Positions 31,912 through 31,987 of a stretch of 32,171 bases of DNA are shown piece after piece; the first letter of the stretch is position 1, and the number at the start of each line of letters is the position of its first letter. The stretch is from a virus. The DNA is taken from IMG/VR virus record IMGVR_UViG_3300029539_000017, positions 1 to 32,171 of that record; one strand, given 5' to 3'. The notes under the pieces were generated by a model. That model was not told the origin of the DNA. It saw only the letters and a list, made by a program, of their open reading frames with translations, and did no database searches. Made by a program: the position numbers and the translations under genes.

Positions 31912-31987
31912 TAATTGTTTTAGCAGGATAGAGCAGTAGTAGCTCACTAGTCTTATTAGCTAGAGGTCGAACGGTGCAAATCCTTCT
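31912..31987 (+). tRNA. tRNA-like element (76 nt, encoded CCA) with anticodon UAU (reads AUA), A1·A72 mismatch and A11:U24, which are initiator-tRNA-like features. T-stem is weak (3 of 5 pairs) and position 37 is U, so this is non-canonical.
   Basis: Manual fold: acceptor 6 of 7 bp, U8-A9, D-stem GAGC/GCTC, anticodon stem CTAGT/GCTAG with loop CUUAUUA, T-loop TGCAAAT, discriminator A plus CCA. Confidence 0.35.

Follow-up and report, generated by a model that had tools for sequence, protein, structure and literature searches.

Does a phage carry an initiator tRNA of its own, and does it use this tRNA to start genes at AUA codons? The question arises in IMG/VR record IMGVR_UViG_3300029539_000017, of which positions 1-32,171, the whole 32,171-nt stretch analyzed, are referred to here as the window. 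An earlier note, made from the letters alone, had drawn attention to a 76-nt tRNA-like element with anticodon UAU close to the end of this DNA and had proposed that it is an initiator-type tRNA reading the ATA start codons of late genes. The proposal is supported by the conservation of an unpaired 1:72 position and of A11:U24 in related tRNAs, by alignments in which ATA starts of tRNA-bearing phages face ATG starts of relatives, and by the co-occurrence of the tRNA with ATA starts. Taken together, these sequence data make it probable that the initiator-derived phage tRNA starts translation at AUA.

The element was examined with the Rfam tRNA model (RF00005), which matched positions 31922-31994 with a score of 48.8 bits, above the gathering score of 29 (E = 1e-7 for the whole window), and an encoded CCA follows at 31995-31997. 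The 76-nt length and the CCA end were as first described, and the position had to be moved 10 nt to the right, from 31912-31987. In the cmscan alignment, the acceptor strands AGCAGGA/UCCUGCA form six pairs and leave A1·A72 unpaired, position 8 is U, the D stem GAGC/GCUC contains A11:U24, and a 5-bp anticodon stem (CUAGU/GCUAG) holds the loop CUUAUUA with UAU as the anticodon; the discriminator A73 precedes CCA. All of these stems, U8, the loop, and the two initiator marks (A1·A72 and A11:U24) agree with the initial reading. The GGG/CCC pairs in the anticodon stem are absent, with A29:U41, G30:C40, and U31:G39 in their place. The T arm, in which two mismatches had been seen, is best read as five pairs and a one-base bulge (GAA-c-GG / CCUUC) closing the loop UGCAAAU with G55. 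Because of this bulge, ARAGORN, one of the checks suggested at the outset, reported no tRNA in the window. Minimum-free-energy folding gave the cloverleaf with a z-score of -0.9 for the window copy and -0.8 to -1.4 overall, which is usual for tRNAs. The elbow is remodeled in the clade of the window (31935-31941 and 31970-31988): the D loop AGUAGUA lacks G18-G19, G55 replaces U55, and the T stem is bulged. The close relative L156 has the D loop AGUGGUG, the T loop UUCAAAU, and no T-stem bulge. The co-occurring D-loop and T-loop changes look like compensation at the level of tertiary pairs.

We next looked for further copies by pattern scans of IMG/VR and of JGI/ENA metagenomes, and for distant relatives on the contigs of portal-protein homologues (loci are designated here by L numbers). 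Near-identical copies were present in dozens of 20-40 kb contigs, mostly from human gut. The whole family comprises 15 distinct versions in more than 70 gut viral or metagenome contigs and in one Amedibacillus isolate genome. In the distant tRNA-bearing phages (L071, L072, L128, L182, L183, L184, L185, and L187), whose portals are 53-63% identical to that of the window, the tRNA lies in each case between early genes and packaging genes; L187 is a prophage located in the isolate genome Amedibacillus sp. YH-ame6 (Erysipelotrichaceae; GCA_053848845.1, contig JBSPEZ010000008.1). Across all tRNA-bearing lineages the Rfam tRNA scores were 43-57 bits, and canonical T arms were found in L156, L071, and L183; ARAGORN does detect relatives whose T arm is canonical. 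The scan of genome contigs, whose pattern required GAGCA...TAGCT, returned only two chance matches, both inside coding DNA; it missed the Amedibacillus copy because the D stem of the latter is GAAU/AUUC, and this copy was reached through the portal protein. The same pattern applied to metagenomes gave extra contigs and no new lineages.

The 15 distinct sequences were aligned and scored on the cloverleaf, with 500 shuffles and slid alignments as controls. Acceptor pairs 2-7, the D stem, and the anticodon stem were 100% paired. Compensatory changes on both sides were observed in 14 of the 20 stem pairs, a number reached by none of the 500 shuffles (0/500), and the best slid control reached 5. 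Position 1:72 was unpaired in 15/15: A72 never varies, and position 1 is A, C, or G (A·A, C·A, G·A). Also invariant in 15/15 were G2:C71, C3:G70, A11:U24, G30:C40, A73, CCA, and U33-U34-A35-U36-U37, so that U37, named earlier as a caveat for the window copy, is a constant of the family. G29:C41 is present in 7/15 sequences, and 31:39 is usually U:G. The lack of GGG/CCC noted for the window does not extend to the family: the full set is found in L184 only, and two of the three G:C pairs in L071, L182, L183, and the V2 variant. These results indicate that the tRNA gene is genuine and that selection maintains it as a tRNA.

Which kind of tRNA is it? No 11-mer is common to the tRNA and the E. coli genomes, so that blastn found no match between them, and global alignment with annotated K-12 tRNAs was used instead. 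The phage tRNAs were 67.5-76.6% identical to metZ (tRNA-fMet) and 48.7-64.9% identical to the elongators metT, ileX, ileV, alaV, glnX, glnU, and leuW. A11:U24 is present in metZ, whereas metT, ileX, ileV, and alaV have C11:G24. The phage tRNA resembles tRNA-fMet in the unpaired 1:72, G2:C71, C3:G70, A73, A11:U24 within a GAGC/GCUC D stem, the AGGUC variable loop, and G30:C40. It differs in having UAU instead of CAU and U37 instead of A37, in being borne by a phage, and in departing from the three-G:C rule, since phage tRNAs keep one to three of these pairs (the window one). In initiators, the unpaired C1-A72 serves formylation, and G29:C41 and G30:C40, gripped by 16S rRNA, serve P-site binding (PMC11497404). 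C1G combined with A11C/U24G lowers recognition by the formyltransferase (PMC11122139), and the role of the formyltransferase determinants G2:C71 and C3:G70, and of A73, follows work by Lee et al. (1991) and by Mayer et al. (2003), both cited in PMC11122139, and also PMC11497404. The unpaired 1:72, the invariant A11:U24, G2:C71, C3:G70, and A73, and the closeness to tRNA-fMet support the assignment of the phage tRNA to the initiator type.

The sole match among GenBank phages was a 'tRNA-Met' of Mycobacterium phage Phabba (L089 302-376; NC_054714.1 91296-91370), which is itself initiator-like: it has A1·C72, G2:C71, C3:G70, A11:U24, and anticodon CAU, its anticodon stem CUAGC/GCUAG is nearly that of the window, and the three G:C pairs are absent. 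Separately, tRNAs with an initiator-type GAGC/GCUY D stem were seen on unrelated viral contigs from IMG/VR (L125, L130, L131/L157, L145, and L168; 29-64% G+C). Most of these combine UAU with A37 and have U:A or C·U at 1:72; L168 has GAU, U37, and U1·U72. In the short loci available for this group, neither ATA nor ATC was detected as a start. A scan for initiator-type tRNAs with an anticodon not beginning with C found, besides the UAU family and L130, only one tRNA-Asp.

We then examined the start codons of the phage genes. In the window, ATA is the start candidate with the best Shine-Dalgarno (SD) sequence at the 5' edge of nine late-region open reading frames (ORFs), and the next canonical start lies 5-140 codons downstream. 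ATT and ATC, equally common codons, never behave like ATA at ORF 5' edges. Two early-region genes (at 26628 and 27010) also start with SD + ATA, so that 9/11 well-supported ATA starts fall in the late region (51-23200) and 2/11 in the early region, where 25563 and 31378 are further candidates. The view of ATA starts as a late-gene pattern seems to hold as an enrichment and not as a rule. Likewise, the tRNA does not stand directly before ATA-initiated genes as had been stated, since the next two genes start with ATG (51) and GTG (682); ATA starts follow from the terS-like gene at 2133, the first ATA-initiated gene downstream of the tRNA.

At seven genes, the SD + ATA of tRNA-bearing phages matches, codon for codon, the position of SD + ATG in L073, L074, and L075, which lack the tRNA. 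The N-termini of the tail-tube protein read IATQGTEV and MATSGTEV, those of the tape measure IADGTLLFETKLD versus MADGTLLFETKLD and IADGTLLFETKLDTKGLQ versus MADGTLLFETKLDNSGL (tRNA-bearing versus tRNA-less), and those of the capsid protein IAITLEEAKVGM in the ATA-initiated L128 versus MAITLEEAKVGM in L073 (further alignments in Table 1). The terS start is ATA also in L071, L072, L182, L184, and L187. In the alignment with the lysin of Streptococcus phage B30, residue 4 of that protein faces residue 3 of the window lysin at the outset, and the B30 N-terminus fits the ATA at 22439. ATA starts are preceded by stronger SD sequences than canonical starts (-12.1 versus -9.6 kcal/mol, p = 0.002). 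These results indicate that ATA serves as the start where the relatives begin with ATG. Two other accounts of the ATA starts were rejected. Translational coupling or re-initiation as a general cause does not suit the lysin, tape-measure, capsid, and terS starts, which adjoin no upstream stop (the endolysin start is not coupled because its context is intergenic), and an alternative genetic code does not suit ORFs that end normally at TAA, TAG, and TGA. Public gene calls in this phage group lose N-terminal residues, since they do not admit ATA as a start: the portal cluster P0001 (1406 member sequences) is called from an internal TTG (3905 in the window), 31 aa short, and the Amedibacillus portal (P0035) is called ~53 residues short. 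Standard gene callers ignore ATA, and databases thereby contain systematically shortened versions of portal, capsid, tail, and lysin genes from this abundant group of gut phages.

Furthermore, we compared ATA starts between phages with and without the tRNA. Strict SD + ATA starts accounted for 47/216 ORFs in nine tRNA-bearing lineages, with 3-7 in each (window, 7/38; L071, 7/27; L072, 4/19; L128, 4/16; L182, 6/25; L183, 4/25; L184, 6/18; L185, 3/17; L187, 6/31), versus 0/90 in four lineages with no tRNA in the DNA fetched (L073, 0/23; L074, 0/27; L075, 0/23; L186, 0/17). A Fisher exact test over lineages, which ignores phylogeny, gave p = 0.0014. In a neighbor-joining tree of portals, poorly resolved and drawn for mosaic phages, the tRNA-less lineages branch off within the tRNA-bearing set, which would imply that tRNA and ATA starts were gained or lost together more than once.

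Several observations weigh against an AUA-starting initiator. Only one of the three initiator G:C pairs (G30:C40) is present in the window, and this single pair could weaken P-site binding or acceptance by IF3. U37 is unusual in any tRNA, and the remodeled elbow of the window clade (no GG in the D loop, G55, and the T-stem bulge) is a further departure. Charging also raises difficulties: methionyl-tRNA synthetase (MetRS) is expected to charge a UAU anticodon poorly, and identity for isoleucyl-tRNA synthetase (IleRS), judged by the E. coli identity sets, is partial, with A35, U36, A38, and A73 present and t6A37, C4:G69, and U12:A23 not. A sigma-70 consensus scan of the window listed no promoter for the tRNA, the upstream box TGCGATAAT included. 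As for the co-occurrence, the tRNA-less loci span only part of their contigs, and the association may reflect few independent evolutionary events on a weakly resolved portal tree. One tRNA-less phage, L074, apparently has SD + ATA at its RusA-like gene (848; ENA ERZ27247531 k141_41163; ITFTIHGRLDGL versus MKFTIPGRLDGL of L071). The 21 kb fetched from L074 contain neither the tRNA nor a second ATA start; the one at the RusA-like gene could be a leftover after tRNA loss, or the gene could be weakly expressed. Finally, the ATA starts in early-region genes make a simple gate on late genes an incomplete account.

Among other explanations, the one that survives best also takes the tRNA to be an initiator and differs in the selective reason, with the same molecular mechanism. 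The tRNA would have been selected mainly to escape anticodon-loop nucleases (VapC-type abortive infection) through U34 and U37, would serve both AUG (by U·G wobble) and AUA, and the ATA starts would be secondary. VapC targets initiator tRNA, and phage tRNAs often have anticodon-loop changes predicted to evade nucleases (PMC10264068); U34 and U37 both differ from tRNA-fMet and are both invariant, and the ATA starts are not confined to late genes. By itself, however, this account leaves the move of essential genes to ATA and their stronger SD sequences unexplained, and we regard it as unlikely.

An ordinary elongator tRNA-Ile(UAU) for internal AUA codons, with ATA starts that are unrelated to it and weakly read by the host fMet-tRNA, would fit the anticodon, which is cognate for the Ile codon AUA, and the label tRNA-Ile(tat) that ARAGORN gives to the relatives; codon compensation is also the usual reading of phage tRNA-Ile genes (e.g., PMC10688831). 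It is difficult to reconcile with a 1:72 position that stays unpaired in 15/15 while all other pairs are kept, with A11:U24 where the E. coli elongators fetched have C11:G24, with U and no purine at position 37 throughout, with the closeness to tRNA-fMet, and with the co-occurrence of the tRNA and ATA starts. Codon usage points the same way. The share of ATA among Ile codons is 14% in the window, 30-36% in the other tRNA-bearing phages, and 31-40% in tRNA-less relatives, at a G+C content that is similar in all of them; internal use is thus no higher in phages that have the tRNA, and lowest in the window, which argues against codon supplementation. We therefore consider an elongator role very improbable. 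A decaying tRNA-like remnant with no role in translation, such as an attP/pac relic or a pseudo-tRNA, would accord with the failure of ARAGORN on the window copy, its bulged T stem, G55, and GG-less D loop, and a folding z-score of only -0.9, but can hardly be maintained against the Rfam score, the canonical T arms of L156, L071, and L183, the strong covariation and invariant functional positions across lineages with portals of only 50-60% identity, the CCA encoded in all copies, and the absence of an integrase adjoining the tRNA (none evident in the window; 4 kb away in L182).

The coordinates of the features in the window are collected in Table 1. The assembly of the window is circular: a 99-nt direct repeat stands at its two ends (1-99 and 32073-32171), which leaves 32,072 unique bases; its G+C content is 33.7%, and all genes are on the + strand. 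Because of this circularity, the ParB-like gene seen at 32124 is the same gene as that at 51-632. The ParB_N and radical-SAM-like genes separate the tRNA from the terminase genes; they are absent from that place in L071 and L072, and both are therefore outside the core tRNA/ATA system. On its other side, the tRNA is preceded by a gene that had been called a late activator followed by a terminator. The terminator-like hairpin is present, directly 3' of the gene, and has counterparts before the tRNA in L183, L185, and L128; the identity of the gene as an activator is weak, as is the suggestion of a regulatory function, with homology detected only for L072 and L156 and a weak Sigma70_r4_2 mark on the gene at the corresponding place in L071. 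Downstream of the tRNA, terminator-like hairpins are found also in L071, L072, L128, L184, and L185. The box TGCGATAAT could be the tRNA's own promoter; A-T-rich -10-like boxes were read by eye, unscored and at a variable distance of ~3-18 nt before the tRNA, in L071, L156, and L182-L185.

Table 1. Features of the window discussed in the text (all positions refer to the 32,171-nt stretch)
Feature	Coordinates	Strand	Evidence and remarks
ParB-like gene (ParB_N domain)	51-632	+	canonical ATG start at 51
Radical-SAM-like gene, 435 aa	682-1989	+	GTG start at 682; CxxxCxxC motif; Pfam match below cut-off
Small-terminase-like gene (terS)	2133..2474	+	SD GGGGGT + ATA; IAEKHAGGRPRI... aligns with MARPKK... 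of L074
Portal	3812..5215	+	SD AAGGAGG + ATA; homologue N-termini align upstream of first canonical start (TTG 3905)
712-aa ORF	5212..7350	+	no Pfam match; SD GAGGAGGA + ATA overlapping portal stop codon (ATAG)
Major-capsid-like gene	10802..11671	+	SD AAGGAGGA + ATA; IPNQIALAKTYVSNLDEVYK aligns with MANAIALFRQYIGNVLDEVYK (L075) and MPIELAKNYVGLLDEVYQ (L074)
Head-tail connector-like gene	12600..12962	+	SD GGGAGGT + ATA; IGMKVKLDVKS aligns with MAVKVKMKS of L074
Tail-tube-like gene	13378..13884	+	SD AAAGGAG + ATA overlapping upstream stop (TAATA); IATQGTEVNTGQTVKKYMIGL aligns with MATSGTEVAVGQRIKKHKIGL of L074
Tape measure	14846..17425	+	SD AAGGAGGTG + ATA; next canonical start 140 codons downstream; ISDGTLKFDTKIDTSGL aligns with MADGTLLFETKLDNSGL of L074
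Distal-tail gene (Dit)	17422..18294	+	SD TGGAGGTG + ATA
CHAP-domain endolysin	22439..23200	+	SD AAAGGAGGA + ATA, intergenic
RusA-like gene, early region	26628..27008	+	SD + ATA; aligns with ATA in L156 and with ATG of L071 (MKFTIPGRLDGL)
HTH_36-domain gene, early region	27010..27750	+	SD GGTGGAGGTGA + ATA; ATA in L156 too
Small putative regulator	31569..31895	+	Pfam Sigma70_r4 E = 0.0076, below curated cut-off
Terminator-like hairpin	31882..31904	+	TGCTCAC-ATT-GTGAGCA + TTTTTT; read from sequence, flagged by scan
Extended -10-like box	31907..31915	+	TGCGATAAT; read by eye; ends 6 nt before tRNA position 1
tRNA gene, anticodon UAU	31922..31997	+	76 nt with encoded CCA; Rfam RF00005
Anticodon loop CUUAUUA	31952..31958	+	UAU = 31954-31956, U37 = 31957; cmscan alignment
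Terminator-like hairpin	32080..32104	+	ACCGAGCG-TTTG-TCTCGGT + TCTTTT; between tRNA and ParB-like gene; from scan

Elsewhere in the window, an insertion relative to L071 and L072 lies between the portal and minor-capsid genes (5212-8698) and holds the 712-aa ATA-initiated ORF and two smaller ORFs; L182 encodes a collagen-repeat protein of 711 aa at the corresponding place. Two overlapping ORFs (13903-14265 and 14226-14825) closely precede the tape-measure gene, the second of which matches Pfam Phage_Gp15 in relatives; this arrangement is usual for tail-assembly chaperones made with a programmed frameshift. No integrase is evident in the window. L182, which has an integrase and a CI-like repressor, is temperate.

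From these data we infer how the tRNA is transcribed, charged, formylated, used in the P site, and beneficial to the phage. An initiator tRNA for AUA would have been derived from a bacterial tRNA-fMet by the changes CAU to UAU in the anticodon and A to U at position 37. It would be transcribed from a small stand-alone unit bracketed by the terminator-like hairpins, between the early/regulatory and the packaging/virion genes. A host synthetase would charge it, most likely IleRS, because the anticodon is the main identity element, with Met as a possible alternative. The host methionyl-tRNA formyltransferase would formylate it, the known determinants (unpaired 1:72, G2:C71, C3:G70, and A11:U24) being all conserved. 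The unpaired 1:72 and the formyl group would keep the tRNA off EF-Tu, and IF2 would deliver it to the P site of the 30S subunit, where it would pair perfectly with AUA starts placed behind unusually strong SD sequences. Such starts are found in ~11 of some 65 phage genes, those of the small terminase, portal, major capsid, tail tube, tape measure, Dit, and endolysin included. Host fMet-tRNA initiates very poorly at AUA; without the phage tRNA it would hardly start the ATA genes, so that proteins made in quantity, the capsid for example, should need the phage tRNA for their translation. The phage could benefit in that virion and lysis genes are gated at translation, or in that it becomes independent of host tRNA-fMet.

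The proposed system was compared with known ones. Engineered E. coli initiators reportedly start at non-AUG codons (with CUA at UAG, and with GAU, GAC, and GAA carrying Ile, Val, and Phe), in work associated with the names of Schulman, RajBhandary, and Mayer. Anticodon-mutant initiators of this kind carry the amino acid that the anticodon specifies and are still formylated, so that Ile would be the likelier N-terminal residue here. They share with the phage tRNA an initiator body and an anticodon changed to suit a matching start codon; they are laboratory constructs, whereas the phage system would be natural, conserved, and co-evolved with its own start codons. In the stop-codon recoding of gut phages, described in 2021-2022, phage suppressor tRNAs accompany the reassignment of TAG or TGA, which is enriched in late genes. 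There too a phage tRNA alters the decoding of the phage's own genes, mainly structural and lysis genes, in the human gut, the genes are mis-annotated, and the anticodon matches a codon used non-canonically, which is ATA at starts in the present case. By contrast, here the start codon would be altered, the tRNA would be of the initiator type made for the P site, and the sense-codon meaning is presumably unchanged.

Elongator tRNA-Ile(UAU) is said, in work associated with the name of Tomikawa (2018), to occur in Mycoplasma mobile, in Lactiplantibacillus plantarum, and in B. subtilis tilS suppressors, and the IleRS of Bacillota can accept a UAU anticodon. These tRNAs read AUA with the same anticodon; unlike the phage tRNA, they have a paired 1:72, Y11:R24, a purine at position 37, and a role in elongation. 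In mitochondria, where AUA also serves as a start, AUG and AUA are both read by one tRNA-Met whose C34 is modified, with no separate UAU initiator. A search of the full-text literature found no description of a system of ATA starts and an initiator tRNA(UAU), and the one paper that notes a phage tRNA-Ile(UAU) reads it as codon compensation (PMC10688831). Among cultured phages in GenBank none is close, the best portal identity being 42.6%. We know of no natural precedent for the reassignment of a start codon by a dedicated initiator.

On balance, we lean towards a private, orthogonal mode of initiation in a clade of human-gut siphophages of Erysipelotrichaceae, in which a formylated tRNA(UAU), probably carrying Ile, would be the only efficient starter at AUA, the production of virions and lysis would be gated by it, and the proteins concerned would begin with formyl-Ile. 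If this is true, a start codon reassigned by a dedicated initiator tRNA, otherwise known only in engineered E. coli, would here be seen in nature for the first time, and the three-G:C rule and A37 of bacterial initiators would prove to be relaxable in nature. The pair of tRNA and codon would also offer synthetic biology a ready-made orthogonal initiator and start codon. For the phages themselves, the start codon would join the stop codons among the decoding signals that they reprogram.

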